From assembly GCA_022710715.1 (NCBI GenBank), contig JAKLGJ010000004.1, forward strand, positions 166 through 64,165: DNA of 64,000 bases, written 5' to 3'. Positions 37,417 through 57,172 of the stretch are shown here, one piece after another. Both the position numbers and the translations under genes were made by a program. Each line of letters opens with the position of its first letter. Position 1 is the first letter of the stretch. The DNA comes from Candidatus Omnitrophota bacterium. GTDB taxonomy: Bacteria > Omnitrophota > Gorgyraeia > Gygaellales > Profunditerraquicolaceae. The notes beneath the pieces were generated by a model. It made no database searches. It saw only the letters and a list, made by a program, of their open reading frames with translations, and had not been told where the DNA came from.

Positions 37417-39448
37417 ACATATTCTTTTTGTCACCTTGAGCAACATCGGCGACGTCGTGTTGACTTTACCGGTGATGGATCGGCTCAAGCAGATCTTTCC
37501 CGGGTGCCGGATAACGGTAGTGGTCAGTCCGCGCGCCCGGGACATCTTTGCGCAGGATGCCTCGGTAGAGCAGGTCATCGTGTATGATAAACATGCACCG
37601 CTGCGGGAAAAGTTCGCTCTTCTCAAGAAGCTCTCTGCCGGACGGTTTGATGCGGTCATAGATCTGCGCAACAGCCTGTTCGGCTATCTGGTGCCGGCGC
37701 GTTTAAAGTCGCGGAAAGCGTATCGACTGGCCCGCAGCGCGCATATGAAGGAGCGTCATCTTGCCGCCGTGTCCCATTTCCCGCATCAGACGCACGAGCC
37801 CCGCCCCGGCTGCCTGAATAGTTCTGCAGAAGAAATCGCCGGGGTGCAACGTCTGCTTGCCGGGTACGGTGTCAATGCCGGAGAAAAACCGGTACTGCTT
37901 TCAGCCGGTGCGCGCAGCCTGACCAAACGTTGGCCGAAGGAGCATTTTGCCGAACTGGCCCGCCGCTTGATCAAGGAACTGCGGGTGCGGGTTATCCTGG
38001 TAGGGGATAGCGCCGATGTCGAGAATAACCGCGGTATTGCCGCTGCCTGCAACGGCGTTATCGATCTCACCGGAAAGACGACGCTGCGCGAATTAATTGC
38101 GCTGGTGCGCATCGCGGAATTGATCATTACCAACGACAGCGCTACGTTGCATCTGGCAAGTTATCTTGACCGGTCGGTACTGGCGCTGTTCGGTCCTACG
38201 GACGAAGTTCGTTACGGACCCTGGTCGCGGCGCAAGCAGGCGATTTTCAAACATATTGCCTGCCGGCCCTGCCAGCAGGCGTTATGTCGCTTCGGTCATT
38301 GCTATTGTCTGACCAGTATCCGGCCGGACGCGGTTTTCCAGGCCGCCCGGCGTTTTCTGACCCAGCCCGGATTACCTGTCGGAGCGTTGCCCGGAGAGGA
38401 TGCCGTCCGGCGGATCCTGATCGTCCGCACCGACAAACTCGGCGATGTCATCCTTTCGACGCCGGTATTTCAGGCGTTGCGTGAAGCGTATCCGCGCGCC
38501 TATCTGGTGCTGCTGGTCCGTCCCTATACCTTCCCGGCGGTGAAGCACAATCCGTTTATCGACGAGATAATCCCCTATGACAAAGCCGGCATCGGCAGAA
38601 GCTGGTGGAAAACCCTGGGCATGGTCCGCGTCCTCCGGCAGCACCGGTTTGATCTGGCGGTTATCCTGCATCCATCCATCCGTAATCATCTGCTGACCTT
38701 CCTGGCCGGGATCCCTCATCGGGTCGGTTACAGCGGCAAAGGCAGTTTCCTGCTTACCGATACGCTCGAGAACAGCAAACATCTCGGAAAAAAGCATGAG
38801 ATCGATTATAATCTGGATCTTATCCGTTCTTTAGGCATCGAGCCCCAGCGGCCGGCATTGTTCCTGGGGATAGGTGCCGGTGAGCGGGAGTGGGCCGCGC
38901 AAGCGTTGGATCAGGCGCATATCCTGCCTGCGGATCGGCTGGTAATCCTCCATCCGGGCACCAATGATCCGTCGCGCACCTGGTTGCCGCAGCGGTATGC
39001 CGCGGTTGCCGATGCCGTCATTCAGCGCTGGGGGTGCAAAGTGATGGTTTTTTCCGGAGAGACGGATCGCGCAATCGCCGAACAGGTGCTTAAGGAAATG
39101 CGCGCTCCGGCCGTCAATATGATCGCCCGGGCCACGATCATGCAGGAAGCTGCGGTGCTGCAGCGAGCCGCAGTGTTCATTTCCACAGACACCGGGCCGA
39201 TGCATATCGCTTCCGCTCTGGGGGTACCGGTGGTCGCTCTTTTTGGCAGGAGAGATCCCGGCGTGGGGCCGCTGCGCTGGGGGCCGGTAAGCCCGCGCAG
39301 CCGGGTAGTGCAAAAAGATCCCGGTTGTCCGCAATGCTTCGCTCACCGGTGTACCCGGGGATTCCGCTGCTTGCAGGCGATCGAGGTTCAGGATGTGCTG
39401 CAAGCGGTCGAAGCGGTCCTGAACGGGGTTGAGCGCGCGCAATCCTAA
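37400..39448 (+). CDS. Tandem double GT9 heptosyltransferase (two complete GT9 modules in one polypeptide)
   Basis: Two copies of the N-terminal signature (ILFVTLSNIGDVVLTLPVM... and ILIVRTDKLGDVILSTPVF...), each followed by a GT9 C-terminal half. 682 aa. Confidence 0.8.
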   Translation: MSIAAKHILFVTLSNIGDVVLTLPVMDRLKQIFPGCRITVVVSPRARDIFAQDASVEQVIVYDKHAPLREKFALLKKLSAGRFDAVIDLRNSLFGYLVPARLKSRKAYRLARSAHMKERHLAAVSHFPHQTHEPRPGCLNSSAEEIAGVQRLLAGYGVNAGEKPVLLSAGARSLTKRWPKEHFAELARRLIKELRVRVILVGDSADVENNRGIAAACNGVIDLTGKTTLRELIALVRIAELIITNDSATLHLASYLDRSVLALFGPTDEVRYGPWSRRKQAIFKHIACRPCQQALCRFGHCYCLTSIRPDAVFQAARRFLTQPGLPVGALPGEDAVRRILIVRTDKLGDVILSTPVFQALREAYPRAYLVLLVRPYTFPAVKHNPFIDEIIPYDKAGIGRSWWKTLGMVRVLRQHRFDLAVILHPSIRNHLLTFLAGIPHRVGYSGKGSFLLTDTLENSKHLGKKHEIDYNLDLIRSLGIEPQRPALFLGIGAGEREWAAQALDQAHILPADRLVILHPGTNDPSRTWLPQRYAAVADAVIQRWGCKVMVFSGETDRAIAEQVLKEMRAPAVNMIARATIMQEAAVLQRAAVFISTDTGPMHIASALGVPVVALFGRRDPGVGPLRWGPVSPRSRVVQKDPGCPQCFAHRCTRGFRCLQAIEVQDVLQAVEAVLNGVERAQS

Positions 39449-39456
39449 AAAACCTG

Positions 39457-39484
39457 TTGACAAAGTATGGTCGGGTGCTATCAT
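39457..39484 (+). promoter_or_regulatory. Sigma70-like promoter TTGACA-N16-TATCAT immediately after the LPS operon stop
   Basis: Consensus -35 and a good -10 read from the sequence. The predicted transcription start (about 39491) is only ~15 nt before a strong terminator. Confidence 0.4.
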
Positions 39485-39506
39485 AACAACCTAACTGCTG
39501 TGGACA

Positions 39507-39550
39507 AAGACGTCCTTGGAAGTGACAAGGTCGTCTTTTTTGTTTTTCAA
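39507..39550 (+). terminator. Rho-independent terminator (12-bp stem with one mismatch, 7-nt loop, TTTTTTGTTTTTCA tail)
   Basis: AAGACGTCCTTG-GAAGTGA-CAAGGTCGTCTT followed by the U-tract. Confidence 0.7.
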
Positions 39551-39650
39551 TGTGCCTAAAAAACAGGCAATCGTAGCATAGATGAACGTAAATAAGGCAA
39601 AACAGGCCGCGTATCAATCAACACACCCGACGCAGACAGGTGGTGCGCCG

Positions 39651-39770
39651 GTGTCGCCCTTGCGGGAATACACCTTGCGCAATCGGAATATGCGCAAGTG
39701 TTGCCCTTGCGGGAACATACCTTGCGCAATTGGAATATGCGCAAGTGTTGCCCTTGCGGGCAAGGAGGAG
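39651..39770 (+). promoter_or_regulatory. Tandemly duplicated (47-nt unit, about 2.5 copies) two-hairpin element in the gdhA 5' leader; the last copy presents the GGAGG SD
   Basis: Hairpin A: CTTGCGCA-(ATCGGAATA or ATTGGAATA)-TGCGCAAG at 39674-39698 and 39721-39745. Hairpin B: TTGCCC-TTGC-GGGCAA at 39748-39763, followed directly by GGAGG and the ATG at 39776. Confidence 0.55.
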
Positions 39771-39775
39771 AAGAG

Positions 39776-41113
39776 ATGTCGAAGAGAATTGACGAATTCA
39801 TGGAACTGGTTATCGCGAAAAACCCCGGTGAGAAAGAATTTCATCAGGCGGTTCGCGAGGTCGTGGAAACGGTAATGCCGTTTATCGAAGAGAATCCCAA
39901 GTATCTCAAGGCAAAAATCCTTGAGAGAATCATTGAGCCTGAACGGATAATCATCTTCCGCGTTCCCTGGCTGGATGATAAAGGCGAAGTGCAGGTAAAC
40001 CGCGGTTTCCGCATTGAAATGAACAGCGCCATCGGGCCGTACAAAGGCGGATTGCGTCTGCATCCCAGCGTGAATCTGGGGATCCTGAAATTCCTGGCTT
40101 TTGAGCAGGTATTCAAGAACAGTCTGACCACGCTGCCCATGGGTGGCGGCAAGGGCGGTTCGGATTTCGATCCCAAAGGAAAGTCCGATAATGAAGTAAT
40201 GCGTTTTTGCCAGAGTTTCATGACCGAACTGCAAAGACATATCGGTCCGGATACGGATGTGCCTGCCGGCGATATCGGCGTAGGCGGCCGCGAGATCGGT
40301 TTTCTGTTCGGCCAGTACAAAAGACTGCGCAACGAGTTTACCGGGGTTCTCACCGGTAAAGGATTGAACTGGGGCGGCAGCCTTATCCGTCCGGAAGCTA
40401 CCGGTTATGGCTGCGTGTATTTTGCCCAGGAAATGCTGCGTACCCGCGGCGAGTCCCTTGAGGGTAAAGTCTGCACCGTATCCGGTTCCGGCAACGTCGC
40501 CCAGTATACCGTGGAGAAGTTGCTGCAGCTGGGAGCAAAACCGGTGACGCTCTCCGATTCCGACGGATATATCTATGACGCTGACGGGATCAGCGAACAG
40601 AAGCTTAAATTCGTTCTGGAGCTTAAGAACGTCAAGCGCGGGCGCATCAAAGAATATGCCCAGAAGTACGGCTGCAAATTCCTGGAAGGCAAGCGGCCGT
40701 GGGAAGTCAAATGCGATATCGCATTCCCGTCCGCCACGCAGAACGAGATCGATGAAGCTGACGCCAAGAAACTGGTCAAGAACGGCTGCATGTGCGTGGC
40801 CGAAGGCGCGAACATGCCGTCTACTCCGGAGGCGATCGCAGTTTTTCAGGCAGCGAAGATCCTGTATGCTCCCGGCAAAGCTTCCAATGCCGGCGGCGTC
40901 GCTACCAGCGGTCTGGAAATGTCCCAGAATAGCCAGCGTTTAGCCTGGACCAGAGAAGAAGTGGATGAGAAATTGCATCAGATCATGATCAAGATACATG
41001 ATTCATGCGTCAAGTATGGAAAAGAAGGCAAGTATATCAATTATGTCAAAGGCGCCAATATCGCCGGGTTCGTCAAAGTGGCGGACGCCATGATCGATCA
41101 GGGTTTAGTGTAA
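39776..41113 (+). CDS. gdhA: NADP-specific glutamate dehydrogenase
   Basis: GDH catalytic region [11 protein letters not shown]...[19 protein letters not shown] and a Rossmann GSGNVAQY motif. Confidence 0.95.
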
Positions 41114-41149
41114 TCGTTTGACATAACGCATCGCGGTGCATTTCACCGG

Positions 41150-41186
41150 CAGGCCGGGTCATTACCATGATCCGGCCTGTTTTTTA
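41150..41186 (+). terminator. Rho-independent terminator after gdhA (CAGGCCGG-N14-CCGGCCTG + TTTTTT)
   Basis: 8-bp GC-rich stem plus U-tract. Confidence 0.7.
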
Positions 41187-41328
41187 AAGTCGTCTAACGC
41201 TTTGTCCCGTAATGGCTTTTATCCCTCAAGTATCTCTCCCGGAATGCCGATAACTAATTAGCAATCAAAGGTATTGCATACCTTACGCTAAAAAAAGCAT
41301 ACGTATTGCCTTCGCAGGCAAGGAGTGA

Positions 41329-43458
41329 ATGGTGTCGATATTGCTGGAAGCGTTGTTAAGGGAGCATGTCATCAGTCCTGAACAGGTGCAGGAAGCGCAG
41401 GAAAAGCAGCTCGGCGCTAAAAAGCCGCTATTGACTTTGCTGCTGGAAATGCATTCCGTGACCGAACAGAATCTGATGACTGCGGCGTCGCATGTATTCA
41501 ATATGCCGGTATGCGACCTGGATAAAGAGTTCATCGACGCGGAAGCGCTCAAACTTATTCCTTACGAGACCGCTAAACAATACAGCATCATTCCGTTGCG
41601 CGTGGAGGCGGATGCGCTGGTTATCGCGATGAGCGATCCGGAAGACAGCCTGGTCATAGATCAGATGCGCGCGGTGTCCGGAAAACAGGTTACATCCGTT
41701 CTGGCCATAGAAAGCCAGATCGTCAAGGCCATTGAAAAAGCGTATCACGCCGATGATGTCGTTTATGACCTGCTCAAGAACACGCAGACATGCGGCGATC
41801 TGTCCATCGACCAGGATGCGGCGTTCGGGCGTCAGGCGGTCGATGTCAGCGCCAGCCGGGATATCCATTCGCCGGCGGTAAAATTGGCGCATATGATCAT
41901 TCACGATGCGATCAAAAACCGGGCCAGCGATATTCACATAGAACCGAAAGAGAACGAAGTGCTGGTGCGCTATCGCATCGACGGTGAACTGCGGCAGATC
42001 ATGACTCTTCCGGCAATCACGTACGCTTCGCTGATCGGCAGAATCAAGATCATGGGCGGTATCGATATATCGGAAAACAGAAAGCCGCAGGACGGCAGGG
42101 TCAGGATAGTGCTGGATAAAAGAAAGATCGATATCCGCATATCCACGCTGCCCACGGTTTTCGGCGAGCGGGTGGAATTGAGAGTTCTCGATCCCCAGGA
42201 AGCCAAAATCGTCCTGGACAGGATCGGCTTGGAGACCCAGGAGCTGGGCATGTTCACCGACGCTATTCACCGCCCCAAGGGGATGGTTCTGGTTACCGGG
42301 CCGACCGGCGCCGGCAAGAATTCCACCATTTACGCGGCTTTGAATGTTTTAAAAGACGGCAAACGCAACATCATTACTCTCGAAGATCCGGTCGAGTATC
42401 TGATGGACGGGATTAACCAGATCCAGGTCAATCCGGCTATCGATCTGACGTTCGCCGCCGGCCTGCGCAGCATTCTGCGGCAGGACCCGGACATTATTTC
42501 GGTCGGCGAGATCCGCGATGAAGAGACCGCCGAGATCGCTTTTAAAAGCGCCATGACCGGGCATCTGGTGTTTTCGACCCTGCATACGATCAATGCCGTG
42601 GCGACCCTGTCGCGGTTGATGAATATGGGGCTGCAGCCGTATATGCTCTCTTCGGCTCTGCTGTTGATCGTTGCCCAGCGGCTGGTGCGTTGCATTTGCC
42701 CGTTGTGCAAGGAAGAGTACCGGCCTGATGAGAAGACTGTTCAGCTGTTCCTGGAGTATTTCGACAATTCCACATTACGCAAGACGTACCGGGGCAGGGG
42801 GTGCGCCAGCTGTAATTTCAGCGGCTATTTCGGCCGGATCGCAATTTTCGAGCTCCTGCCGATCACCATGGAAATCCGTCGTATCATCGATTCCGGTTTC
42901 AGCGAGGAAGCGGTATTCCAGCAGGCGCGTAACCACGGGTTAAGGACTCTGGCCGAAGCGGGTATCGCTAAAGTATCCCAGGGTATAACCACGCTGGAAG
43001 AAGTCGCGCGGGTGGCGGAGCTGATTCCCATGGGTACGAATACCGGGGAATCTCCGGGCATCCAGCGCAAAGGAACGCATATCCTGGTGGCGGATGACGA
43101 TGAGAGTATACACAAATTGCTCGGCGCCTATCTTGAGCATGCCGGATTTCAGGTCAGCCATGCCAGAGACGGGGAAGAGTTGATCGCGCTGGTTATGAGC
43201 GAAAAACCGGATATGGTCATTACTGACGTGACCATGCCCAAGAAGACGGGGTTGGAAGCCACCCAACAGCTGCGTTCGAATCTCTCCACTGCGGGTATTC
43301 CCATCCTGATGCTCACCGCCCGGGAAGATAAAGCCAGCGAACTGGCCGGTTTGCATGCCGGAGTGGATGATTATATGACCAAGCCGTTTGATTACGAAAA
43401 GCTTCTGGCGCGGGTACAGATGCTTTTGCGTCGCAGCACCGCGTCTTCTTTTGCTTGA
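41329..43458 (+). CDS. Type II secretion / type IV pilus assembly ATPase (GspE/PilB family) with a C-terminal CheY-like receiver (REC) domain
   Basis: N-terminal GSPII_E domain; Walker A GPTGAGKNST; Asp and His boxes; the CxxC...CxxC tetracysteine. The C-terminal ~125 aa (ILVADDDESI...DMVITDVTMPKKTG...LTAREDK...KPF) are a REC domain. Confidence 0.85.
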   Translation: MVSILLEALLREHVISPEQVQEAQEKQLGAKKPLLTLLLEMHSVTEQNLMTAASHVFNMPVCDLDKEFIDAEALKLIPYETAKQYSIIPLRVEADALVIAMSDPEDSLVIDQMRAVSGKQVTSVLAIESQIVKAIEKAYHADDVVYDLLKNTQTCGDLSIDQDAAFGRQAVDVSASRDIHSPAVKLAHMIIHDAIKNRASDIHIEPKENEVLVRYRIDGELRQIMTLPAITYASLIGRIKIMGGIDISENRKPQDGRVRIVLDKRKIDIRISTLPTVFGERVELRVLDPQEAKIVLDRIGLETQELGMFTDAIHRPKGMVLVTGPTGAGKNSTIYAALNVLKDGKRNIITLEDPVEYLMDGINQIQVNPAIDLTFAAGLRSILRQDPDIISVGEIRDEETAEIAFKSAMTGHLVFSTLHTINAVATLSRLMNMGLQPYMLSSALLLIVAQRLVRCICPLCKEEYRPDEKTVQLFLEYFDNSTLRKTYRGRGCASCNFSGYFGRIAIFELLPITMEIRRIIDSGFSEEAVFQQARNHGLRTLAEAGIAKVSQGITTLEEVARVAELIPMGTNTGESPGIQRKGTHILVADDDESIHKLLGAYLEHAGFQVSHARDGEELIALVMSEKPDMVITDVTMPKKTGLEATQQLRSNLSTAGIPILMLTAREDKASELAGLHAGVDDYMTKPFDYEKLLARVQMLLRRSTASSFA

Positions 43459-43482
43459 CAAATCGCTCTGACGTGCTATACT
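43455..43482 (+). promoter_or_regulatory. Sigma70-like promoter TTGACA-N16-TATACT overlapping the stop codon of the GspE-REC gene
   Basis: Consensus -35 (includes the TGA stop) and a TATACT -10. Confidence 0.4.
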
Positions 43483-43516
43483 TCTTTCTGTAAGCAATGA
43501 ATGAAGCTGAACAGTG

Positions 43517-43547
43517 ACGTTCGCGAAAGCGAGCGTTTTTTGTTTTT
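43517..43547 (+). terminator. Rho-independent terminator (ACGTTCGC-GAAA-GCGAGCGT, GNRA loop) with the same TTTTTTGTTTTTCA tail as the 39507-39550 terminator
   Basis: 8-bp stem (one G-U pair), GAAA tetraloop and U-tract. Confidence 0.7.
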
Positions 43548-43596
43548 CAGTCCCCACACCGGCATGTTGTGAGGGAGCAAAGGATAACGACGTCCT

Positions 43597-43637
43597 GGAT
43601 TATACATCAGAGGTAGATGTATAGTCCGGGATTTTTT
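43597..43637 (+). promoter_or_regulatory. Terminator-like leader hairpin (GGATTATACATC-N7-GATGTATAGTCC, then GGGATTTTTT) abutting the nadE SD
   Basis: 12-bp stem with one mismatch, 4-nt spacer and a 6-U tract. It ends 4 nt before the TAAGGAG SD. It is also a DNA palindrome, so it could be an operator. Confidence 0.45.
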
Positions 43638-43655
43638 GCTTAAGGAGACTGCGAG

Positions 43656-45365
43656 ATGTCCGGAAAAGCTGCGGCAATCACGCGTATAGCATGCGCCCAG
43701 ATGAACGCGACCGTGGGAGACATCGAGGGGAATAAAGAAAAGATCCGCTTTTGTATCGAACGGGCGCACGCGCACGCAGCGGATATAGTGGTTTTCCCGG
43801 AATTGTCTTTGACCGGGTATCCGCCGGAAGACCTGTTGCTCAAACCGTCGTTTATCGCGGACAACCTGACCGCGCTGGGGCAACTCGCGGCAGCGGTCCC
43901 GGACATTATTGCGGTGGTGGGATGTGTGGATAAAGCGGGAGGACGGATTTTCAATGCCGCGGCTATCCTGTACCGGGGAGCGGTCGCCGGGATCTATCAC
44001 AAGAAGCTTCTGCCGAACTACGGCGTATTTGATGAAAAGCGTTATTTCACGCCGGGTCAGCGGCCCGGAGTTTTTGCCTACGCGCACCATATGTTCGGGG
44101 TGACGATCTGTGAAGATATCTGGCTTGCCGGTGGTCCGCTGGATGAGCAGGCTCGACTGGGAGCCGGATGTATACTCAACTTGAGCGCTTCCCCGTATCA
44201 TATGGGCAAACAGAAAATCAGGGAACAGACGGTTTGCCGGCAGGCCAGGCACTACGGCCTTCCTATCGTATATACCAATCTCATCGGAGGACAGGATGAG
44301 CTTGTGTTTGACGGCCAGAGCATGATGATTGACGGGCGGGGAAAGGTGGTTGTACGGTTGCCCGCGTTTCGCGAGGATATGCTTTTTGCGGACCTGCAGC
44401 TCAAGCCTGCCGGGAACAGGAAGAGCAAAGCAGCGCTGAATCTGGGCTGCCCGCGGGGCAGCCGGAATAAGCCGGTTTTGATCCGCAGGGATGCAGAGTC
44501 GCTTGAGCCTGTCGCCGAGGTGTATCGCGCGCTGGCGGTGGGGCTGCGCGACTATGTCGTCAAGAACGGGTTCAAAAAGGTGGTTCTGGGGTTAAGCGGC
44601 GGTATTGATTCCGCGCTGGTGGCGTGTCTAGCGGTAGATGCGCTGGGGCAGGATAATGTAACCGGGGTATTCATGCCTTCGCGCTACTCTTCGCAGGAAT
44701 CACTGACAGACGCGCAGATGCTGGCAGAGAATCTGCATATTGAGTTCCAGCAGATCAGTATCGAGCATATCTATAAAATGTATCTATTGGTTTTAGAGCC
44801 GCATTTCACGGGGAGGGGCAAAGACGTCACTGAAGAGAACTTGCAGGCGCGTATCCGGGGCAACATCCTCATGGCTCTTTCCAATAAATTCGGGTGGTTG
44901 GTGTTGACCACGGGGAATAAGTCCGAGATGAGCACCGGTTACGCCACGCTGTATGGCGATATGGCCGGAGGGCTGGCGGTGATCAAAGACGTTCCGAAGA
45001 CGCTTGTGTACCGGCTGTGCGCTTTCCGCAACAGCCTGCATGCGGCGATCCCGCAGCGTATCTTTACCAAGCCTCCTACTGCGGAGCTGCGGCCGAACCA
45101 GAAAGACAGCGACTCGTTGCCGGACTATGCGCTGCTTGACCCGATTCTCAAGGAGTATATAGAAAACGACCGCAGTTCCCGGGATATCGCCGGCAAAGGC
45201 TATGCGCAAGCGATAGTGGAAAAAGTGGTGCGCCTGGTCGATCGTACCGAATATAAGCGTCGTCAGGCGCCCCCGGGTATCAAAATCACGCCCAAAGCGT
45301 TCGGCAGAGACCGGCGCATGCCCGTGACCAATCGGTATAGCGATACGGGCTCAACGGGTGCGTAG
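43656..45365 (+). CDS. nadE: Glutamine-dependent NAD+ synthetase (N-terminal CN-hydrolase/nitrilase domain plus C-terminal NAD synthase domain)
   Basis: CN hydrolase catalytic triad region (FPELSLTGY...ICEDIW) and the SGGIDS PP-loop of NAD synthase. Confidence 0.9.
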   Translation: MSGKAAAITRIACAQMNATVGDIEGNKEKIRFCIERAHAHAADIVVFPELSLTGYPPEDLLLKPSFIADNLTALGQLAAAVPDIIAVVGCVDKAGGRIFNAAAILYRGAVAGIYHKKLLPNYGVFDEKRYFTPGQRPGVFAYAHHMFGVTICEDIWLAGGPLDEQARLGAGCILNLSASPYHMGKQKIREQTVCRQARHYGLPIVYTNLIGGQDELVFDGQSMMIDGRGKVVVRLPAFREDMLFADLQLKPAGNRKSKAALNLGCPRGSRNKPVLIRRDAESLEPVAEVYRALAVGLRDYVVKNGFKKVVLGLSGGIDSALVACLAVDALGQDNVTGVFMPSRYSSQESLTDAQMLAENLHIEFQQISIEHIYKMYLLVLEPHFTGRGKDVTEENLQARIRGNILMALSNKFGWLVLTTGNKSEMSTGYATLYGDMAGGLAVIKDVPKTLVYRLCAFRNSLHAAIPQRIFTKPPTAELRPNQKDSDSLPDYALLDPILKEYIENDRSSRDIAGKGYAQAIVEKVVRLVDRTEYKRRQAPPGIKITPKAFGRDRRMPVTNRYSDTGSTGA

Positions 45366-45380
45366 AAAGGCAGGTGAAGC

Positions 45381-45905
45381 ATGATCACATTCGAGCGGGT
45401 TCTGGAGAAATTTACCCCCCGGCTGAAAGGCATCGCGCACAGGATATACACCTGCAGTCCTTCGGTATCCAGCGACGACCTGATGCAGGAAGCAGCGGTG
45501 CATTTATGGATGGAGTATACGCAAGGCAACCTGTCCGACAAAACGGACAGTTATATCCTGCAGGGCTGTTATTTTCATCTCAAGAATTTTGTGCGCACGA
45601 TCAAAGGGCGCAATCGGCTGATCAGCATCGATGAACACGCCGGCGAAACCGATGAGCATCCGGAATCGCTGCTCTGGAAGCGCGATCGGGAAGCGGCTGC
45701 GGATTACCTGGAGTATCTCAATGACCGCATGCTCGCGGATGTGATCCGCAATAACGGTCTGACCGTGAAAGAAAAAGAACTGCTTCCTTTTTTAAGCCAG
45801 GGATTGACTACCCGCGAGATCGGAGCGAAACTGGGCGTTTCGCATGTGCGGGTGATAAAACTAACCCGGGCGATCCGCGAAAAATGCCGTAAGTATCTCG
45901 ATTGA
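45381..45905 (+). CDS. Sigma-70 family (ECF-like) RNA polymerase sigma factor
   Basis: Region 2-like helix (LMQEAAVHLWMEY) and a C-terminal region 4 HTH (LTTREIGAKLGVSHVRVIKL). Confidence 0.7.
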   Translation: MITFERVLEKFTPRLKGIAHRIYTCSPSVSSDDLMQEAAVHLWMEYTQGNLSDKTDSYILQGCYFHLKNFVRTIKGRNRLISIDEHAGETDEHPESLLWKRDREAAADYLEYLNDRMLADVIRNNGLTVKEKELLPFLSQGLTTREIGAKLGVSHVRVIKLTRAIREKCRKYLD

Positions 45906-46019
45906 TCTTCGTCCGTTACCGGGAGGTGAAGTAAATACAGGTTACCAGCCGGCGCGCAGATTTACTTGTATACATGGCAGACTTGAGAGCATGACACAGC
46001 GATGTGTGAAAGTACGATG

Positions 46020-46137
46020 ACGTTCGCCGGACAGCGAACGTTTTTCATTTGAGGTCGTTTTTTGCGTTGAACGCAAAAGTTTTCTGACGCGGGCGTCTTA
46101 GATCCAGACAACAGTTCGGATCGAAGACGCCTTTTTT
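46020..46137 (+). promoter_or_regulatory. Three consecutive hairpin-plus-U-tract structures in the 245-bp gap before glnB; the last ends 3 nt before the SD
   Basis: (1) ACGTTCGC-CGGACA-GCGAACGT + TTTTT at 46020-46046. (2) TTTTGCG-TTGAA-CGCAAAA + GTTTT at 46058-46084. (3) GGCGTCTT-N24-AAGACGCC + TTTTTT at 46092-46137. Confidence 0.55.
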
Positions 46138-46153
46138 GTTGAAGGAGGACGGG

Positions 46154-46492
46154 ATGAAGAAAATCGAAGCGGTGATCCGTTCGGAAAAAGTCGGGGCGGT
46201 ACGTAAAGCCCTGGAGCAGGTTGCGATAGCCGGGTTGACCCTGATCCAGGTCGATGGCCACGGGAATCAACGGGGAACGGTACAGAGACTGCGGGGGGAA
46301 GAATTTAAAGTGGGTATCCTTCCCAAGACCAAACTGGAACTGATCGCTGCGGACAAGCATGTCCCGGCGATCATCCGGGCCATCTGTACGGCAGCTCGCA
46401 CCGGGCAGATCGGTGACGGCAAGATATTCGTCTATCCGGTGGAAGAAGCCGTGCGTATCCGCACCGGGGAGTGCGGAGAAAAAGCGCTGTGA
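46154..46492 (+). CDS. glnB: Nitrogen regulatory protein P-II
   Basis: PII fold signature with a T-loop (RGEEFKVGILPK); 112 aa. GAAGGAGG SD. Confidence 0.9.
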   Translation: MKKIEAVIRSEKVGAVRKALEQVAIAGLTLIQVDGHGNQRGTVQRLRGEEFKVGILPKTKLELIAADKHVPAIIRAICTAARTGQIGDGKIFVYPVEEAVRIRTGECGEKAL

Positions 46493-46517
46493 TCACGCTC
46501 TACTATAGGAGGAAGCT

Positions 46518-47744
46518 ATGAATACAGGAGATACCGCGTGGGTGCTGATATCTGCGGCGCTGGTGCTGTTGATGACGCCGGGGCTGGCCTTCTTTTACGG
46601 CGGCATGGTGCGCAAGAAGAACATTTTGAGCGTGCTCATGCAATGTTTTATCATCATGTGTCTGGTGGGAGTGCAATGGGTGCTTTGCGGCTACAGCCTT
46701 TCTTTTGCTCCGGGCAAGGGGTTCTGGGGGGGATTCGCCTGGATGGGGCTTAACGGCGTGGGGTTCGAGCCGTATGCCGCTTATGCCGGCACTATTCCGC
46801 ATCAAGCCTTCATGATCTTTCAGGCGATGTTCGCAATCATTACTCCGGCGTTGATCATCGGCGCTTTTGCCGAGCGGATGAAATTTTCGGCGTTTCTGAT
46901 CTTTATCCTGCTCTGGTCGACTTTTGTCTACGATCCGGTCTGTCACTGGGTCTGGGGCATCGGCGGATGGCTGCGCGCTCTTGGCGCTTTGGATTTTGCC
47001 GGCGGTACCGTGGTGCACGTCAATGCCGGCATAGCCGCGCTGGTTACGGCATTGATCATAGGAAAGCGCAAACATGTGGAAAAGAATGTTCCGGTTCCCC
47101 ACAATATGCCGTTTGTAGCCCTGGGTACGGGGCTGTTGTGGTTCGGATGGTTCGGGTTCAACGCCGGAAGCGCACTGGCGGCAAACGGACTGGCGGTTAA
47201 TGCTTTTGTTGTGACGACCACCGCCGCTTCAGCCGCGGGGTTAAGCTGGGCGTTGATCGAATGGATGCGTAACGGCAAACCGACGTTGTTGGGCGTCTGT
47301 TCGGGCGCGGTTGCCGGGCTAGTGGCTATTACTCCTGCTGCCGGGTTTGTGAGCGTGGTTCCGGCAATCGTCATCGGGTTGCTGGTCAGTGTTTTTTGCT
47401 ATACTGCGGTAAGCGTGATCAAGCCCGCGCTGGGGTACGACGATTCTCTGGATGCTTTCGGGGTGCATTGCGTGGGCGGCATCTGGGGCGCTCTGGCAAC
47501 CGGGCTGTTCGCTTCCAAAGCGGTGAATCCTGCGGGAGCCGACGGTGCGTTCTTCGGCAATCCCAGGCTGTTCCTGGTGCAATTGATCGCCGTGGGTATC
47601 ACTATCGTCTATTCTTTCATCGTCACCATCGTCATCTACAAAGTGGTCGACGCTCTGGTCGGCGTGCGGGTAGGGGAAAAAGAAGAGTCGCTGGGGCTGG
47701 ATCTGTCTCAACATCACGAACGGGCGTACACGGTGCTGGAGTAG
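46518..47744 (+). CDS. amtB: Ammonium transporter
   Basis: Amt family: 11 transmembrane segments and the DFAGGTVVH and GxxGxxxxG motifs. Confidence 0.95.
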
Positions 47745-47755
47745 CGGTGTTATAC

Positions 47756-47804
47756 CCCGCGCAGATCGGAATTGCGCGGGTATTGCCCTTGTGGGCAAGG
47801 AGGG
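47756..47804 (+). promoter_or_regulatory. Second copy of the two-hairpin motif, filling the amtB-glnK intergenic region: CCCGCGCA-GATCGGAAT-TGCGCGGG, TA, TTGCCC-TTGT-GGGCAA, GGAGGG
   Basis: Same architecture and spacing as the gdhA leader element. The stem sequence differs but pairing is preserved (compensatory changes). Confidence 0.55.
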
Positions 47805-47808
47805 TGGA

Positions 47809-48150
47809 ATGAAGCTGATTATTGCGATCATCCAGCCGGACAAGCTGGAGGAAGTCAAAGAAGAGTTGTATAAGGCCGAAGTGAATCTGCTGACCGTGAA
47901 TGAAGTGTTGGGACATGGTCGTCAAAAAGGGGTAACTGAGGTGTACCGCGGCGCCAGGGAATCCGGGAATCTGCTGCGTAAGGTCCGCCTGGAGATAGCG
48001 GTTAACGACGGTTTTGTGGAGCCGACCGTGAAAGCGATCATCAAAGGCGCTAGAACCGGGGAAACCGGCGACGGAAAGATTTTCGTCCTGGATCTGAAGG
48101 AATGCGTGCGCATCAGAACCGAAGAGCGCGGCTCTCCGGCTATCGGTTGA
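47809..48150 (+). CDS. glnK: Nitrogen regulatory protein P-II (second paralog, GlnK-like)
   Basis: PII fold signature (KLEEVKEEL...[22 protein letters not shown]); 113 aa. Confidence 0.9.
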
Positions 48151-48247
48151 GAGCGGTCGTTCAAAAAAGAATAGACACCTCATTGCGGCAGCGATATAAT
48201 AATTATCTATACGTATGGCATAGTATGCCGCACATGAGGTTTTGTTC

Positions 48248-48565
48248 ATGAAAGAGACCGTAGATAAGATACTGAAGGAAGAAGCGCTGGCTAACGCCAA
48301 GCTTGAACAGGCGCGCCAGGATGGCGAGCGCATTGTGCAGCAGGCCAAGAAAGATGCGCAGGCAATTCTGGAACAGACCGTCCTGGAATCGGAAGCGCTT
48401 GCTCAAAAGCGCCGTGATGACATCTCCCAGCAGCTGCTCGCCGAAAAGGAAAAAGCACTGGCGGATATCCGGTCTCAAGTTTCCGGCCGGGCCAAAGCCA
48501 AAGAAAAGACTATCCCTGCAATCGCGCAAAGTATCTTTACCAGAGTCATAGAGATCAACCCGTAG
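48248..48565 (+). CDS. V/A-type ATPase peripheral-stalk subunit (G/H-like), coiled-coil
   Basis: 105 aa, Ala/Gln/Glu/Lys-rich coiled coil. First gene of the V-type ATPase operon. Confidence 0.5.
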   Translation: MKETVDKILKEEALANAKLEQARQDGERIVQQAKKDAQAILEQTVLESEALAQKRRDDISQQLLAEKEKALADIRSQVSGRAKAKEKTIPAIAQSIFTRVIEINP

Positions 48566-48571
48566 GCTCTC

Positions 48572-49612
48572 ATGCGTCAACTCTCAAAATATTCCTTCGC
48601 CAACGCCAAGATCCGGGCAATGCTTTCGTTTCTTCTTGACCCGGCGACGTTTACTTCGATGCTTGAAGCCGGCAATCGGGATGAAGTGATTGAGCTGTTG
48701 CGCAAAACTCCCTATGCGTATATCTTTGAAGGAGTTTCGTCCGAGAATTTCGAGATTTCCCGGATAGAACGGGCTCTTTTTCGCCATGATATCGCCTTAC
48801 ATCAAAAGCTCTTCGCCATGCTCTCCGGCCAGCCGGAAAAGGATTTTGTGACTTTGCTTCTGCAGAGATACGAGATCGAAGAGCTCAAGGTTGTCCTGCG
48901 GATCTGGCATAAAAAAGCCCCGGTCGATCTGCAAGACTATATCGTGCAGCCGGTAATCAGTTTCGATATCGATTTCAAAAAAGTGCTTGCGGCGCCCACT
49001 ATCGAAGAAATCATACTCTTACTGGATCATACCCCGTATAAAAACGCGTTAATGAACGTCCGGGAAAAATATCGGGCGCACAACGCTTCTTTTTACCTGG
49101 AAACCGGGCTGGATCTGGACTATTATAATCGTCTCAACGAAGCGATTAAGCGGTTTACCGGGGTTGACCGGGGCATAGCCGCCAGGATCCTGGGTATCGA
49201 GATCGACATCCAGAATATCAACTGGCTGGTCCGTTTGCGCAAATATTATTCTCTGGGGATCGGGGAGATGCTGGAATGGTTCATTCCCGGGGGAGCCTGG
49301 ATCGCCAAGGACCGGGTGAGGGAGCTCTACGTTTCAGACGGACTCACCAAAGTCGTGGAGAGCGTGTCCCTTGGCCCCTATGCGCGGATCAAGGAAATGG
49401 TCGAAGGGAATATGGCGGCGATGGAAGCATTTTTATATTCCTTCCTGCTCCAGGAAGTCAAAAAGGCCCTGGCGGGTTTTCCGTTCACTGTCGGCACCGT
49501 CCTGGGATATCTGGTGCTTAAACACCGGGAGACGAGAAATATCATCTCTATACTGAACGCCAAACAATTCGGCTGGGACAAGGAGCACATTCTGCCTCTG
49601 CTCAATCTATGA
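48572..49612 (+). CDS. atpC: V/A-type ATPase subunit C (eukaryotic d homolog)
   Basis: N-terminus KYSFANAKIRAMLSFLL typical of bacterial/archaeal subunit C; 346 aa. Confidence 0.8.
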   Translation: MRQLSKYSFANAKIRAMLSFLLDPATFTSMLEAGNRDEVIELLRKTPYAYIFEGVSSENFEISRIERALFRHDIALHQKLFAMLSGQPEKDFVTLLLQRYEIEELKVVLRIWHKKAPVDLQDYIVQPVISFDIDFKKVLAAPTIEEIILLLDHTPYKNALMNVREKYRAHNASFYLETGLDLDYYNRLNEAIKRFTGVDRGIAARILGIEIDIQNINWLVRLRKYYSLGIGEMLEWFIPGGAWIAKDRVRELYVSDGLTKVVESVSLGPYARIKEMVEGNMAAMEAFLYSFLLQEVKKALAGFPFTVGTVLGYLVLKHRETRNIISILNAKQFGWDKEHILPLLNL

Positions 49613-51570
49613 TTACGCCGGCGGCAATGGAACTGGTCAGTTTTGTGGTGTTACGGGAGAACGTCGAAGCGGTAGCTGCGCATCTGCTTAAACTCGGCAT
49701 TTTCCACCCGGTGGATATTCGGCATATAGAAGAGAAGCTGCACGGTCTTTCGCTTTTTGAAATAGAGAAAGAAAACAACGACTGGAGCGCTGTCCAGACG
49801 CGGGTCAGGGATGTGGCCCGGAAGTTGCGGCTCGATCTCTATTCCGTTTTCGACCAGCCGGTCCCGGCGTCCTCGGTCAAAGACATTGAGGACGCGGTTG
49901 ATTCGCTGGAGAAGAAAGTCAATCCCCTCCTGGAAGAAAAAGAAGCGATTAGCCGTCAGATCGAAACGGACCAATCCATTCTGTCGCATGTAAACGAATC
50001 TATGCCGCCGGGGTTGCAGAGGAACGCGCTGTATTCTTTCCTGGATGTTTCAACCGGGAAGATGGAAGAGAAGAATCTGGTTGTGCTTGAACGCAGCCTC
50101 GCGGATATCCCGCACGTCATCTATCCGTTCCGCAAGGAAGTTCCGGGGAAAATTTCGGTCATGGTGATGGGGTTGCGTCGCGACCGTGTGCTTATCGATA
50201 AAGTGCTGCGCGATGTGGCCTGGGAAGCGGCGGATTATTCCAGCGAAGGGCAGGGGTTAAGCCAGGCGGCCCAGGAGAAGCTCACGCAGCAGATAGCGAA
50301 CGGCCGGCAAAAGATGGTTGAACTGCAGCAGCGTATCGCCGCGCTCGGCCAGGAACATGCGCAGCAGCTCCAGAAGTTTTTGTCTTTTATCACGCTGAAG
50401 AAATCGCTGCTGGAAGCGCAGCGGTATTCCTGCACGACGGAAAAGACCGCGCTTTTTTCCGGCTGGGTCCCCCGGGCGGATAAAGAGCGGGTTGTCCGCG
50501 AGATCAAGGCGGTGGCCGGCGCGTCTTACGTGGAAAGTAAGTCCGCAGAGCAGTCCGGGGTGCCGCAGGAAGAAGTTCCGGTGCGTTTTCAGCATAACGC
50601 GACTCTCAAGCCGTTCGAGATGCTTATCGAAGCGTATGGCGTTCCGCGCTACGGAACGGTGGACCCGACACTGTTCGTGGCCATCAGTTTTCTCTTGATG
50701 TTCGGGGCGATGTTCGGCGACCTGGGGCATGGTCTGGTACTGGTGTGTATCGGTTTGCTGATCGCGGTACCGTCATTCAACAGGTTGCTCAAGCCATTCC
50801 TTAAGGCCGGGCCGGTATCCGAGGGAGGCCGGCGTTTCGGGACGTTGATTCTGTATTGCGGGATCAGTTCGAGTGTTTTCGGCGTTCTGTACGGCAGTTT
50901 CTTCGGGTTCGAGTTTCCCTCTCTCTGGATCAAACCCATGGAAAATGTGATGGAAGCGTTCAGAGTGGGGATCGGGTTCGGGGTTATCATGATCTCTCTG
51001 GGGATTGTCATCAATGTGTTCAACGCTTTCCGGGATAAAGATTATGCCAAAGCGTTTTTTGATAAGGCGGGGCTGGTGGTGGGATTGCTTTACTGGGCGG
51101 GTATCGGTCTGGTGAGCAAGATCCTGTCCGCCCAGCAGAAGATCAATCCTCTTTATTTTTATCTGGTGTTCGGCAGCATCCTGGTGCTCTTTCTTTTTCC
51201 TATTGTCGAAAACATTCTTTTCAAGAAGCACGCGAGCTTGATTGAGGCGTTCTTTGAAAGCATCGTGAACATGCTCGAGATCTTCATGGGATATTTGTCC
51301 AACACCGTATCTTTTATCCGCGTGGCGGCTTTCGCTCTGGCGCACACCGGTCTCTTCCTGGCGATTTTCGGGCTTTCACACGCGACGGAGTCCAGCGGGA
51401 ACCTGGGTTCGGCGCTGGCCTGGTTGATCATCATCGGAGGCAATATCCTGGTGGTCTGTCTGGAAGGGCTGGTGGTAAGCATACAGTCGATCAGGCTTAA
51501 TTACTATGAGTTCTTCTCAAAATTTTTCATCGCGGGCAAACAGATGTATAAACCGCTTTCGTTGACATAA
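49609..51570 (+). CDS. atpI: V/A-type ATPase subunit I (a-subunit homolog, membrane)
   Basis: Soluble N-terminal ~330 aa plus a C-terminal multi-transmembrane domain with the conserved Arg region (SFIRVAAFALAH). Confidence 0.85.
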   Translation: MITPAAMELVSFVVLRENVEAVAAHLLKLGIFHPVDIRHIEEKLHGLSLFEIEKENNDWSAVQTRVRDVARKLRLDLYSVFDQPVPASSVKDIEDAVDSLEKKVNPLLEEKEAISRQIETDQSILSHVNESMPPGLQRNALYSFLDVSTGKMEEKNLVVLERSLADIPHVIYPFRKEVPGKISVMVMGLRRDRVLIDKVLRDVAWEAADYSSEGQGLSQAAQEKLTQQIANGRQKMVELQQRIAALGQEHAQQLQKFLSFITLKKSLLEAQRYSCTTEKTALFSGWVPRADKERVVREIKAVAGASYVESKSAEQSGVPQEEVPVRFQHNATLKPFEMLIEAYGVPRYGTVDPTLFVAISFLLMFGAMFGDLGHGLVLVCIGLLIAVPSFNRLLKPFLKAGPVSEGGRRFGTLILYCGISSSVFGVLYGSFFGFEFPSLWIKPMENVMEAFRVGIGFGVIMISLGIVINVFNAFRDKDYAKAFFDKAGLVVGLLYWAGIGLVSKILSAQQKINPLYFYLVFGSILVLFLFPIVENILFKKHASLIEAFFESIVNMLEIFMGYLSNTVSFIRVAAFALAHTGLFLAIFGLSHATESSGNLGSALAWLIIIGGNILVVCLEGLVVSIQSIRLNYYEFFSKFFIAGKQMYKPLSLT

Positions 51571-51613
51571 TCGGATTAATAGAAATGCATAATCAAAAAT
51601 AAGGAGGGTGCGC

Positions 51614-51949
51614 ATGAAAGTAACCAAGAGAGGTGCGGGCGTAGTTTTATTGACACTCATCATGCTGGCGGTGGCGTTGTGCGGTATCGCCTGCGCGCAG
51701 GAAGCGCAATCCACGGCGATGGCTAAGGATCCGCAGCTTGCGCGCTGGGCGTTTATCGCCGCGGCGTTATCCACCGGGTTAAGCGCCCTGGCCGGCGGTA
51801 TTGCCGTTGCCTACGTGGGATCGGCTGCGGTAGGAGCGGTGAGCGAAAAACCGGAAGTATCCGGCAAGGTGCTGTTGTACGTAGGGTTAGCCGAAGGTAT
51901 TGCTATTTACGGGTTGATCATCGCCATTATGATACTTATCAAGGTGTAA
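51614..51949 (+). CDS. atpK: V/A-type ATPase proteolipid subunit K (c ring)
   Basis: Two-hairpin proteolipid with GLAEGIAIYGLIIAIMIL. AAGGAGGG SD. Confidence 0.9.
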   Translation: MKVTKRGAGVVLLTLIMLAVALCGIACAQEAQSTAMAKDPQLARWAFIAAALSTGLSALAGGIAVAYVGSAAVGAVSEKPEVSGKVLLYVGLAEGIAIYGLIIAIMILIKV

Positions 51950-51954
51950 GCTCG

Positions 51955-52257
51955 ATGAATTTTTTCTGTATCGCGGATAAGGCAAGCAGCCTGGGATTCA
52001 AGCTGGCCGGAGTCGAAACCAGGGAAGTCGGCACCCGGCAGGAAGCCATGGAGGCCTTGCAGGTCGCCCGGGCCACCAAAGATACCGGGATCATCCTGAT
52101 TACCGAAAAGGCCGCTGCTCTGATCAAAGCGGAGATTGCCGATCATATTGTCGAAGATCCGATCCCTTTGATTATTGAAATTCCATCGTCAGGGTCGCTG
52201 CAAAAACGCACGAGCGCCGGCGAATTGCTCAAACAACTTGTTGGCATAGGGATGTGA
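51955..52257 (+). CDS. atpF: V/A-type ATPase subunit F
   Basis: IADKASSLGFKLAGVE motif; 100 aa. Confidence 0.8.
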   Translation: MNFFCIADKASSLGFKLAGVETREVGTRQEAMEALQVARATKDTGIILITEKAAALIKAEIADHIVEDPIPLIIEIPSSGSLQKRTSAGELLKQLVGIGM

Positions 52258-52258
52258 T

Positions 52259-52900: not shown

Positions 52901-52905
52901 GCAAA

Positions 52906-54663: not shown

Positions 54664-54679
54664 GGGAGCGTTAGGGACG

Positions 54680-56682: not shown

Positions 56683-56692
56683 CGGAGGATGT

Positions 56693-57172
56693 ATGGCGAT
56701 AAGAAATATTGTGGTTTCGGTTGCCGGCGCGCCGGGTTCTCTGGTGACCGCCAAATACGCTATTGCCCTGTCCAAGCTTTTGGGCGCCAAGCTCACCGCG
56801 CTTTATGTGGTGAATGAGAAGGTTCTGCATGAATTGCTGCATACCAGGATTTTCGTCGAAGCCGAAGCGCAGGCCTATGCCCGGGATATGGAACAGCAGG
56901 GTAAGTCTTTCCTGGAGCGTTTGCAGAAAATGGCGGAGCAAAAGGGAGTCCCGTATGAAGGGTTTTTGCTCAAGGGCGTGATCAGCGACGAAGTGATCAA
57001 TAAAACTAAAGCCGTGCAGGCGGATATGCTGGTTATAGGAGAATTGCGGGAGGTCACGTCTGTTTCGCAGCTTTTTTATGACGAGGGTGAGCGCATCTTC
57101 CGTAAAAGCCACTGTCCGGTGGTGATGGTGCGGGACCAGGCCATGGTGGAAGCGCTTTTCAAGGAGATCTGA
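56693..57172 (+). CDS. Universal stress protein (UspA family)
   Basis: Usp alpha/beta fold with the C-terminal G...G(9)G(S/T) ATP-binding-like region. Confidence 0.85.
   Translation: MAIRNIVVSVAGAPGSLVTAKYAIALSKLLGAKLTALYVVNEKVLHELLHTRIFVEAEAQAYARDMEQQGKSFLERLQKMAEQKGVPYEGFLLKGVISDEVINKTKAVQADMLVIGELREVTSVSQLFYDEGERIFRKSHCPVVMVRDQAMVEALFKEI

Follow-up and report, generated by a model that had tools for sequence, protein, structure and literature searches.

A 64,000-nucleotide (nt) stretch of Candidatus Omnitrophota bacterium DNA (contig JAKLGJ010000004.1 of assembly GCA_022710715.1; the whole stretch is hereafter called the window) raises the question of why structures that look like intrinsic transcription terminators should stand directly in front of the Shine-Dalgarno sequences (SD) of genes for nitrogen metabolism, namely those for a glutamine-dependent NAD synthetase (nadE), a PII protein (glnB) and a type III glutamine synthetase (glnN). 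An earlier note on this DNA had pointed to these hairpins and had explained them as regulated attenuators under the control of an antiterminator protein or RNA, naming ANTAR first among the candidates. The analysis reported here bears out that proposal through small hairpins with six-base loops that overlap the terminators, through paired hairpins with A at loop position 1 (A1) and G at loop position 4 (G4), through covariation among related loci and through linked genes for GAF-ANTAR proteins. We consider it likely, from sequence comparison, that the SD-proximal hairpins act as leader attenuators at which termination is the default and would be relieved by a GAF-ANTAR protein that stabilises the small hairpins.

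Results

Terminator-like hairpins next to the SD of nadE, glnB and glnN

The three hairpins and U-tracts lie where they had been placed before, and their U-tracts stop 1-4 nt 5' of the SD. The hairpins and the genes that they precede are as follows; the central finding is the nadE hairpin, and the similar element of gdhA lies close to its promoter.

43592-43632, forward strand: stem of the SD-proximal terminator (T2) of nadE, 17 bp, -24.8 kcal/mol, with U6 at 43632-43637
43642-43647, forward strand: SD of nadE (AAGGAG), 4 nt past the U-tract, with the ATG at 43656
43656-45365, forward strand: nadE, glutamine-dependent NAD synthetase (Pfam)
45381-45905, forward strand: sigX, a sigma-like gene of 174 amino acids (aa), beginning 16 nt after nadE and co-oriented with it
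46091-46132, forward strand: stem of the SD-proximal terminator (T2) of glnB, -24.4 kcal/mol, with U6 at 46132-46137
46141-46149, forward strand: SD of glnB, with the ATG at 46154
46154-46492, forward strand: glnB, PII (Pfam), with amtB next
57736-57780, forward strand: stem of the single, SD-proximal terminator of glnN, -26.6 kcal/mol, with U9 at 57780-57788
57790-57795, forward strand: SD of glnN (AGGAGG), with the ATG at 57803
57803-59995, forward strand: glnN, type III glutamine synthetase (Pfam)
39777-41113: gdhA, upstream of nadE

The terminators of these leaders are G+C-rich stem-loops of -12 to -27 kcal/mol with 6-9 U directly 3' of the stem, as is typical of intrinsic terminators. A scan of positions 41000-60500 gave 32 terminator-like sites versus 20.4 ± 4.5 in shuffled sequence, and the three SD-proximal hairpins rank among the strongest of them. 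The two further hairpins with U-tracts described before as lying 5' of glnB T2 are also present, at 46019-46042 and 46059-46079. When related loci were searched for more copies of the arrangement of hairpin, U-tract and SD, it was found before 109 distinct nitrogen-gene starts, and this recurrence argues that the layout is not due to chance.

Leader promoters and distal terminators

The earlier note had held that the hairpins at 43516-43537 and 46019-46042 terminate the upstream operons separately and had argued for attenuation from the resulting redundancy of the SD-proximal hairpins. That premise is wrong: because promoter elements stand upstream of both hairpins, these belong to the nadE and glnB leaders, where they are the first attenuators (T1) and bear the best ANTAR motifs.

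43455-43482, forward strand: nadE promoter TTGACA-16-TATACT with TG, sigma-70 type, 11/12 matches
43516-43548, forward strand: distal terminator (T1) of nadE, stem 43516-43537, -13.4 kcal/mol, with U6GU5
46019-46050, forward strand: distal terminator (T1) of glnB, stem 46019-46042, -12.3 kcal/mol, with a U-rich tract
46059-46084, forward strand: weak extra hairpin and U-tract between glnB T1 and T2, -7.4 kcal/mol
39457-39484, forward strand: gdhA promoter, sigma-70 type (TTGACA, 16 nt, TGcTATCAT), by direct reading of the sequence and of the type seen in nadE and sigX leaders
39502-39548, forward strand: gdhA attenuator, GGAC[AAAGAC]GUCC (39502-39515) overlapping a terminator (39508-39536), then U6GU5

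In nadE, T1 lies 34 nt from the promoter, the -35 element of which contains the stop codon of the preceding T2SSE-RR gene; T1 may also end the transcript of that gene. The same T1 is kept in four related loci (L024, L053, L055 and L057), and the weak hairpin at 46059-46084 of the glnB leader showed no conservation among the relatives inspected. The nadE and glnB leaders thus hold tandem attenuators, T1 and T2, and those of glnN and gdhA hold one each, which in gdhA is promoter-proximal.

Hexaloop mini-hairpins overlapping the terminators

A search for alternative antiterminator folds, which had been suggested as a check on the attenuation proposal, found mini-hairpins with six-base loops overlapping the terminator 5' arm in every leader. 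The order of elements in a full leader is promoter, P1, P2 overlapping T1 with its U-rich tract, H2 overlapping T2 with its U-tract, and SD, where P1, P2 and H2 are mini-hairpins with stems of 3-5 bp, a closing C-G pair and six-base loops. In every element of the window the 3' arm of the last mini-hairpin shares bases with the terminator 5' arm, so that the two folds are mutually exclusive. The scores given below are from R1, a covariance model that was trained on 51 dual hairpins from other loci and run unfiltered on both strands of the 64-kb window.

43493-43522, forward strand: dual-hairpin region of nadE, R1 match of 14.2 bits, with alignment and pair counts
43493-43508, forward strand: nadE P1, degenerate, AGC[AAUGAAUGAA]GCU with a 10-nt loop
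43509-43522, forward strand: nadE P2, GAAC[AGUGAC]GUUC
43581-43596, forward strand: nadE H2, AGGAU[AACGAC]GUCCU, -3.6 kcal/mol, its 3' arm being the beginning of T2
45994-46025, forward strand: dual hairpin of glnB, the best R1 match in the window (23.3 bits, E 3e-4)
45994-46007, forward strand: glnB P1, ACAC[AGCGAU]GUGU
46012-46025, forward strand: glnB P2, GUAC[GAUGAC]GUUC, its stem containing one U-U mismatch and its loop starting with G
46086-46097, forward strand: glnB H2, GAC[GCGGGC]GUC, overlapping T2 (element 46086-46137)
57701-57743, forward strand: canonical dual hairpin of glnN with a 15-nt linker, R1 match of 15.0 bits
57701-57714, forward strand: glnN P1, GCAC[ACGGUA]GUGC
57730-57743, forward strand: glnN P2, GAAC[AGAGAU]GUUC, 5' of the only terminator of this leader

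The glnN leader has no H2, and that of gdhA has a single P2-type hairpin with neither P1 nor H2. With free energies of -3 to -4 kcal/mol, versus -12 to -27 kcal/mol for the terminators (in gdhA, -4.0 versus -14.1 kcal/mol), the mini-hairpins are far weaker than the structures with which they compete; termination would therefore be the default, and a stabilising factor would be needed to overcome it.

Loops with both A1 and G4 are found in glnN P1 and P2, glnB P1, nadE P2, nadE H2 (AACGAC) and gdhA (AAAGAC), and the A1 rule is broken in glnB P2 (GAUGAC) and glnB H2 (GCGGGC), both of which have G at position 1. The pair of mini-hairpins is complete in glnN and near-complete at T1 of glnB (mismatch in P2) and of nadE (10-nt loop in P1). 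In the window R1 ranks glnB first, glnN third, nadE T1 fourth, nadE T2 fifth and gdhA (10.8 bits) sixth. Two further matches to the dual-hairpin rule, at the gdhA 3' terminator (41149) and at the intragenic position 53687, look spurious and were rejected.

Conservation and covariation in related loci

Two sets of relatives were collected. A scan of genome contigs with NadE reached mostly distant phyla and gave two informative loci, L003 and L024; the closest NadE relatives found were from Candidatus Omnitrophota metagenome-assembled genomes (61-63% identity). L024 keeps the order nadE, 174-aa gene, glnB, amtB, second PII gene and V-ATPase, and its nadE leader is conserved in sequence, with the promoter, GCUGAACAnUGACGUUCGC and then AAGGAUAAnGRCGUCCUGGAUUA. 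When metagenome contigs were searched with the 174-aa protein, more than 440 relatives came up, and these gave 80 further Omnitrophota-like loci; the attenuator layout repeats in about 100 leaders of these loci. TTGACA-N14-TGnTATACT precedes about 30 nadE and sigX leaders, and the 109 distinct SD-proximal terminators stand before sigX, amtB, porin, nadE, glnA, glnN and PII genes; in 88 of them the 5' arm opens with G[GA][CT]GU.

Covariation was measured on alignments picked by gene context rather than by pairing, the H2 set being anchored on the terminator arm only. In H2 (87 SD-proximal terminators), 84.9% of cells are paired, one pair being GC in 36 and AU in 35, and the covariation of 0.294, versus 0.203 after shuffling, was reached by none of 500 shuffles (slid controls, at most 0.169). 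For P1 and P2 together (31 leaders), 81.6% are paired and the covariation is 0.255 versus 0.134 shuffled, again reached by 0/500; P2 on its own is 93.5% paired, with compensatory changes at four of its five pairs.

Motif counts, for which terminators were catalogued with strict criteria over all fetched loci, point the same way. Both A1 and G4 are present in 148 of the 588 hexaloop hairpins (25%) that overlap terminator 5' arms in Omnitrophota-like loci; the corresponding share is 6.1% among hexaloop hairpins as a whole and 10% in unrelated loci. The full dual hairpin overlaps 80/498 sense-strand terminators versus 0/122 antisense ones, with controls of 3/376 terminators in unrelated loci and 0.8% after flank shuffling.

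The distal and proximal sites differ, most clearly in the sigX leaders. Among the 33 examined, 24 are tandem; their 24 distal terminators carry an A1/G4 hairpin in 17 cases and the full pair in 16, and the 33 proximal terminators carry a G4 hexaloop hairpin in 32, with A1 in 7 and a partner hairpin in 3. G4 is fixed in the H2 family by the anchor that collected the set, and the commonest proximal loops are UAAGGC, GCAGGC and AUAGGC. In two loci (L059 and L068) an H2-type hairpin acts as P2 of the full dual motif, which makes a single family of sites more plausible than two mechanisms with nothing in common. Judged by these comparisons, the SD-proximal hairpins of nadE and glnB are a single-hairpin relative of the canonical ANTAR site, and that of glnN is itself canonical.

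A candidate GAF-ANTAR regulator

No ANTAR gene was found within the 64-kb window, either with a probe made from ANTAR consensus sequences or with a hidden Markov model built from six Pfam-confirmed proteins. The consensus probe detected open reading frames of about 245 aa just 5' of sigX in 17 related loci (18 reading frames in total), and all six that were checked against Pfam have both GAF and ANTAR domains (ANTAR E 1e-17 to 1e-21). A genome search for an ANTAR protein had also been proposed as a check, and it met with success past the end of the window, on a contig that was reached with the HTH_8 protein of the window as query. Window positions 50099-64000 are 100% identical to the 1.62-Mb parent contig Ga0116241_10000002 over an overlap of 13.9 kb, and the continuation carries this gene:

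68474-69190 in window-equivalent numbering (18376-19092 of locus L134), glnN strand: 238-aa GAF-ANTAR protein, 4.5 kb past the window end

The order after glnN, all on the same strand, is HTH_8, gltB, gltD, asnB and the GAF-ANTAR gene, which overlaps the asnB stop codon. Among solved structures, the best single match of the GAF domain is a cyanobacterial adenylate cyclase, followed by the GAF domains of Nlh1 and EI-Ntr (PtsP), with NifA weaker; the ANTAR domain matches Rv1626 and NasR.

Two GAF-ANTAR genes are present in some relatives (L086 657-1409 and 1712-2458; L089 102-845), and the divergent copy stands behind a tandem attenuator leader of its own, with GGAU[AAUGAC]GUCC, an arrangement that points to autoregulation or to a second specificity. 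On the continuation of the window, the gene 3' of GAF-ANTAR is pyrG; its leader (L134 19440-19538) has a sigma-70-like promoter, AAC[AACGGC]GUU overlapping a terminator, U7 and then the ATG (R1 match of 12.9 bits), and pyrG could be a further member of the same regulon, one of enzymes that use glutamine.

A sigma-like gene and a promoter-like box

The product of sigX matches Pfam Sigma70_r2 (E 1e-3) and Sigma70_r4 (E 2e-3) weakly, both scores falling short of the curated cut-offs, with a weak GerE match as well; a profile of three sequences matched FliA structures with E 7e-8 and sigma-H with E 0.009. In the glnB and glnN leaders the sigma-70-type promoter of nadE is absent, and a box GTTACCA-N14-TWACTTGTA is found in its place.

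45941-45970, forward strand: promoter-like box GTTACCA-N14-TTTACTTGTA in the glnB leader
57642-57671, forward strand: promoter-like box GTTACCA-N14-TTTACTTGTA in the glnN leader, overlapping the EIIA-Ntr stop codon

Related loci totalling 578 kb contain 106 copies of the box, all of them in gene sense and with the spacing unchanged, and 765 kb of unrelated loci contain one; the box is flanked by A-rich sequence upstream and has a T-rich spacer. In the form aaaat..aGTTACCAga-N9-TTtTTTACTTGTA it precedes amtB, PII, porin, glnN and glnA genes and at times sigX itself (L108 and L127). The sigX product and the box may be a sigma factor reserved for nitrogen control and its cognate promoter. In one locus (L101 6545-6720), the interval between sigX and the box promoter of the porin gene holds three tandem 57-nt units, and every unit contains a small GC hairpin.

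Other observations

Three genes have a hairpin of the form UUGCC(C)-N4-(G)GGCAA that touches or overlaps their SD (GGCAAGGAG), namely gdhA (39748-39767), the T2SSE-receiver gene (41306-41325) and the second PII gene (47783-47802). Within the gdhA leader a stretch of about 50 nt is directly repeated (39650-39760), and one such hairpin lies inside the repeat. TTGCC-N6-GGCAAGGAG was considered as a feature of the family and rejected, as among the fetched loci it occurs only in this genome or its copies.

The leader of a large surface-protein gene (5203-5420), a non-nitrogen gene, also has a terminator next to the SD: it combines a TTGACT promoter-like hexamer and the inverted repeat ATACAT-N5-ATGTAT (5228-5244) with a hairpin at 5364-5396, U7, AGGA and an ATG at 5417, and no hexaloop mini-hairpin was seen in it. 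The inverted repeat had been reported before at 5226-5242; the repeat is real, and its position is the one given here. In two other Omnitrophota metagenome-assembled genomes (L004 9900-9990 and L005 9940-10020) nadE has a different conserved leader, ACAAAGAAGUUCCUGCCCAAnGAnGGGAAAA, which is without a terminator pair and without an Rfam match and may be an unrelated regulatory RNA.

Discussion

The elements described above suggest a mechanism in which intrinsic terminators lie within the 5' leaders of nadE-sigX, glnB-amtB and glnN, with a promoter-proximal one in gdhA. By default the stable terminator would form and transcription would stop 5' of the SD. In the alternative fold, the first bases of the terminator 5' arm would pair just upstream into a weak hexaloop hairpin of 3-5 bp with G4 and often A1. 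Under nitrogen limitation a dimeric ANTAR protein, for which the 238-aa GAF-ANTAR protein encoded after gltB-gltD-asnB is the candidate, would bind and hold the mini-hairpins, so that the terminator is blocked and polymerase reads through into the gene. At nadE and glnB transcription would pass two serial checkpoints, a distal one with the canonical dual hairpin and an SD-proximal one with a single related hairpin. Computation establishes the structures, their positions 3' of promoters, the exclusive pairings, their conservation and covariation and the linkage to ANTAR genes; we infer that the ANTAR protein binds the hairpins, that its GAF domain senses a nitrogen metabolite (for instance 2-oxoglutarate or glutamine) and that the response has the direction given here.

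This mechanism would extend a known kind of control. By published definition, an ANTAR target is a pair of small hairpins, each with a stem of 3 bp or more and an A1/G4 hexaloop; a short linker joins the pair, and the second hairpin overlaps a terminator (Ramesh et al. 2012, PMC3369931). Such sites were predicted at that time 5' of genes for PII, ammonium transporters and glutamine/glutamate synthases in many bacteria, so ANTAR control of nitrogen genes is in itself of a known kind (PMC3369931). The leaders described here resemble the targets of EutV (eutP, eutG, eutS and eutA of Enterococcus faecalis), NasR (nasF) and AmiR (amiE) in having a default leader terminator and a genome-encoded ANTAR protein (PMC3369931), in the paired A1/G4 hexaloop stem-loops (complete in glnN, nearly so at T1 of glnB and nadE) of which the second shares bases of the terminator 5' arm, and in that predicted targets of the class belong mostly to nitrogen metabolism (PII, ammonium transporters, glutamine/glutamate synthases). 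They differ in that the sensor is a GAF domain rather than a receiver, a NIT domain or an AmiC partner; in that most leaders have two serial terminators and a U-tract that abuts the SD; in that the SD-proximal site is a single hexaloop hairpin, the first loop base of which is often U or G; in linkers of 0 to 15 nt; and in the Omnitrophota-like host phylum. GAF-ANTAR proteins are a common architecture; in 2012 none was said to have been characterised (PMC3369931), and in the parts of a 2025 review covered by a look-up of terms no characterised GAF-ANTAR protein was found.

Among other systems, protein-stabilised RNA structures also rival a leader terminator in BglG/SacY/LicT with their RAT element, HutP, PyrR and TRAP; the recognised element differs in being a hexaloop mini-hairpin here, and no 29-30 nt RAT element, UAG/GAG repeats or CAT/PRD protein was seen. 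In Geobacter sulfurreducens, the ANTAR regulator of the GnfK/GnfR system reportedly controls genes of nitrogen fixation and assimilation by overriding leader terminators of genes such as glnB, amtB and gdhA in a cascade with a regulator of transcription initiation, GnfR itself being, according to Ueki and Lovley in 2010, a phosphorylated response regulator under a sigma-54/NtrC-type system. By comparison, the ANTAR protein proposed here is a GAF-ANTAR protein, and the initiation tier is apparently formed by a small sigma-like protein that has a promoter box to itself. What would be new, then, is the GAF sensor, the tandem layout with a non-canonical single-hairpin checkpoint abutting the SD, the host lineage and the apparent coupling to a sigma-like protein and its box.

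Several observations weigh against attenuation by the GAF-ANTAR protein. The SD-proximal T2 structures of nadE and glnB hold one mini-hairpin and not the pair that defines ANTAR sites; nadE P1, with its 10-nt loop, is predicted not to fold (0.0 kcal/mol), in glnB P2 one pair is mismatched and the loop starts with G, and the linker of glnN is 15 nt long versus 5-12 nt in the eut leaders. The R1 matches in the window are individually weak (E 3e-4 to 0.76), and the match that ranks second (2479-2514, 17.2 bits) lies in an A+T-rich stretch inside a DUF3786 gene and is probably a false positive. The first loop base of H2 is A in 38 of the 87, U in 24 and G in 23, and mutation of A1 impaired control by EutV (PMC3369931). 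In H2 the conservation of loop bases 4-6 (GGC) is ambiguous because these bases also sit in the T2 stem. Finally, all of the support is computational, with transcript starts, 3' ends and binding deduced from DNA.

The plainest alternative is that the hairpins are ordinary, unregulated tandem fail-safe terminators that close upstream operons, their closeness to the SD reflecting tight gene packing. As the first terminator after the T2SSE-RR gene, the stop codon of which is inside the nadE -35 element, nadE T1 probably does end the transcript of that gene as well, and hairpins of a like kind stand at true operon ends in this genome (41149-41180 and 60014-60040). Plain terminators, though, have no need of conserved, covarying 5' arms with upstream complements. 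Conserved promoters stand upstream of the hairpins, one locus (L121) has a separate terminator 5' of the promoter, the unit of promoter, hairpin and SD stays constant while the upstream genes vary among loci, and the dual hairpins are restricted to the gene-sense strand; we therefore regard this explanation as very improbable. Still less probable is a metabolite riboswitch or T-box-like RNA that senses glutamine, NAD+ or a tRNA directly. The genes do use glutamine (nadE, control of glnB-amtB, pyrG) or make it (glnN), and the leaders are structured and 130-200 nt long, but Rfam has no match in the window at gathering score and, in 39400-48300, nothing above noise even at E up to 10, T-box and specifier features are absent, and no aptamer-sized conserved core is present because the mini-hairpins and terminators are joined by spacers that vary in length and sequence. 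The NasR or T-box-like control that had been offered as an alternative found no support either.

The palindromic shape of nadE T2 had also been noted as leaving room for a role as a DNA operator, and together with ATACAT-N5-ATGTAT at 5228-5244 it could be read as a site for a dimeric transcription factor: ATACAT-N(3-9)-ATGTAT occurs twice in the window versus 0 expected, the 5' arm CCUGGAUUA(U)ACAUCA is kept in the closest relatives, and within the nearest clade the nadE 5' arm CCUGGAUUAnAUCA is retained. Yet the pairing of the T2 arms relies on G-U wobbles, and these would be mismatches in DNA (GGAUU/AGUCC in the window; ACAUCA/UGAUGU plus wobbles in L024), the T2 3' arm drifts among relatives with pairing retained, in other clades the GGCGUCC base is the same but the upper stem is unrelated, and the element lies about 110 nt 3' of the promoter. 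On the G-U pairs, the compensatory changes and the drifting 3' arm we rejected the operator reading of the nadE palindrome, and we give hardly any credence to a role of the two elements as operators.

More serious, though still unlikely, is that the hairpins are attenuators but that the factor acting on H2 is not the ANTAR protein itself and is instead another RNA-binding protein, a small RNA or a second-class GAF-ANTAR paralogue, so that T1 and T2 integrate two signals. H2 loops are indeed unlike those of P1 and P2, with UAAGGC and GCAGGC dominating and A1 in under half; a partner hairpin stands beside H2 in only 3 of the 33 sigX leaders, and relatives with two GAF-ANTAR genes have one behind its own attenuator (L086 and L089). 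Against a separate factor, the geometry of H2 is that of P2 (a C-G closing pair and a hexaloop with G4, in a hairpin that overlaps the terminator arm), the nadE H2 loop AACGAC is canonical, an H2-type hairpin is P2 of the full motif in L059 and L068, and the loci showed no further RNA-binding protein that could be the regulator. We favour attenuation at both sites by the GAF-ANTAR protein.

Conclusions

Taken together with sigX and its box, the attenuators may form a two-tier nitrogen circuit of Omnitrophota-like bacteria, previously undescribed, that joins GAF-ANTAR attenuation to initiation through sigX and the box and in which the SD-proximal single-hairpin attenuator is a distinct second class of ANTAR site; we put this forward tentatively, as a possibility that is rather less than even. 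In the first tier, a one-component GAF-ANTAR protein would sense a nitrogen metabolite directly and relieve the tandem attenuators. In the second, nadE-sigX would be among the targets, and the sigX product would steer polymerase to GTTACCA-N14-TWACTTGTA; the genes with this box, porin-amtB-glnB, glnN and glnA, would themselves be attenuated.

If true, the two-tier circuit would be a coherent feed-forward AND-gate in place of the NtrBC and sigma-54 system of Proteobacteria. Experiments on ligand and binding would be easily designed, given a GAF-ANTAR gene, about a hundred candidate leaders and clear sequence rules, and the tandem design would mean that a pair of attenuators differing in stringency can be placed one after the other immediately 5' of a ribosome-binding site. 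The circuit would also provide the first regulatory model of nitrogen assimilation for an uncultured and widespread phylum, comprising a putative sigma factor dedicated to it, the matching promoter and a regulon of porins, amtB, PII, glnN, glnA, nadE, gdhA and possibly pyrG.

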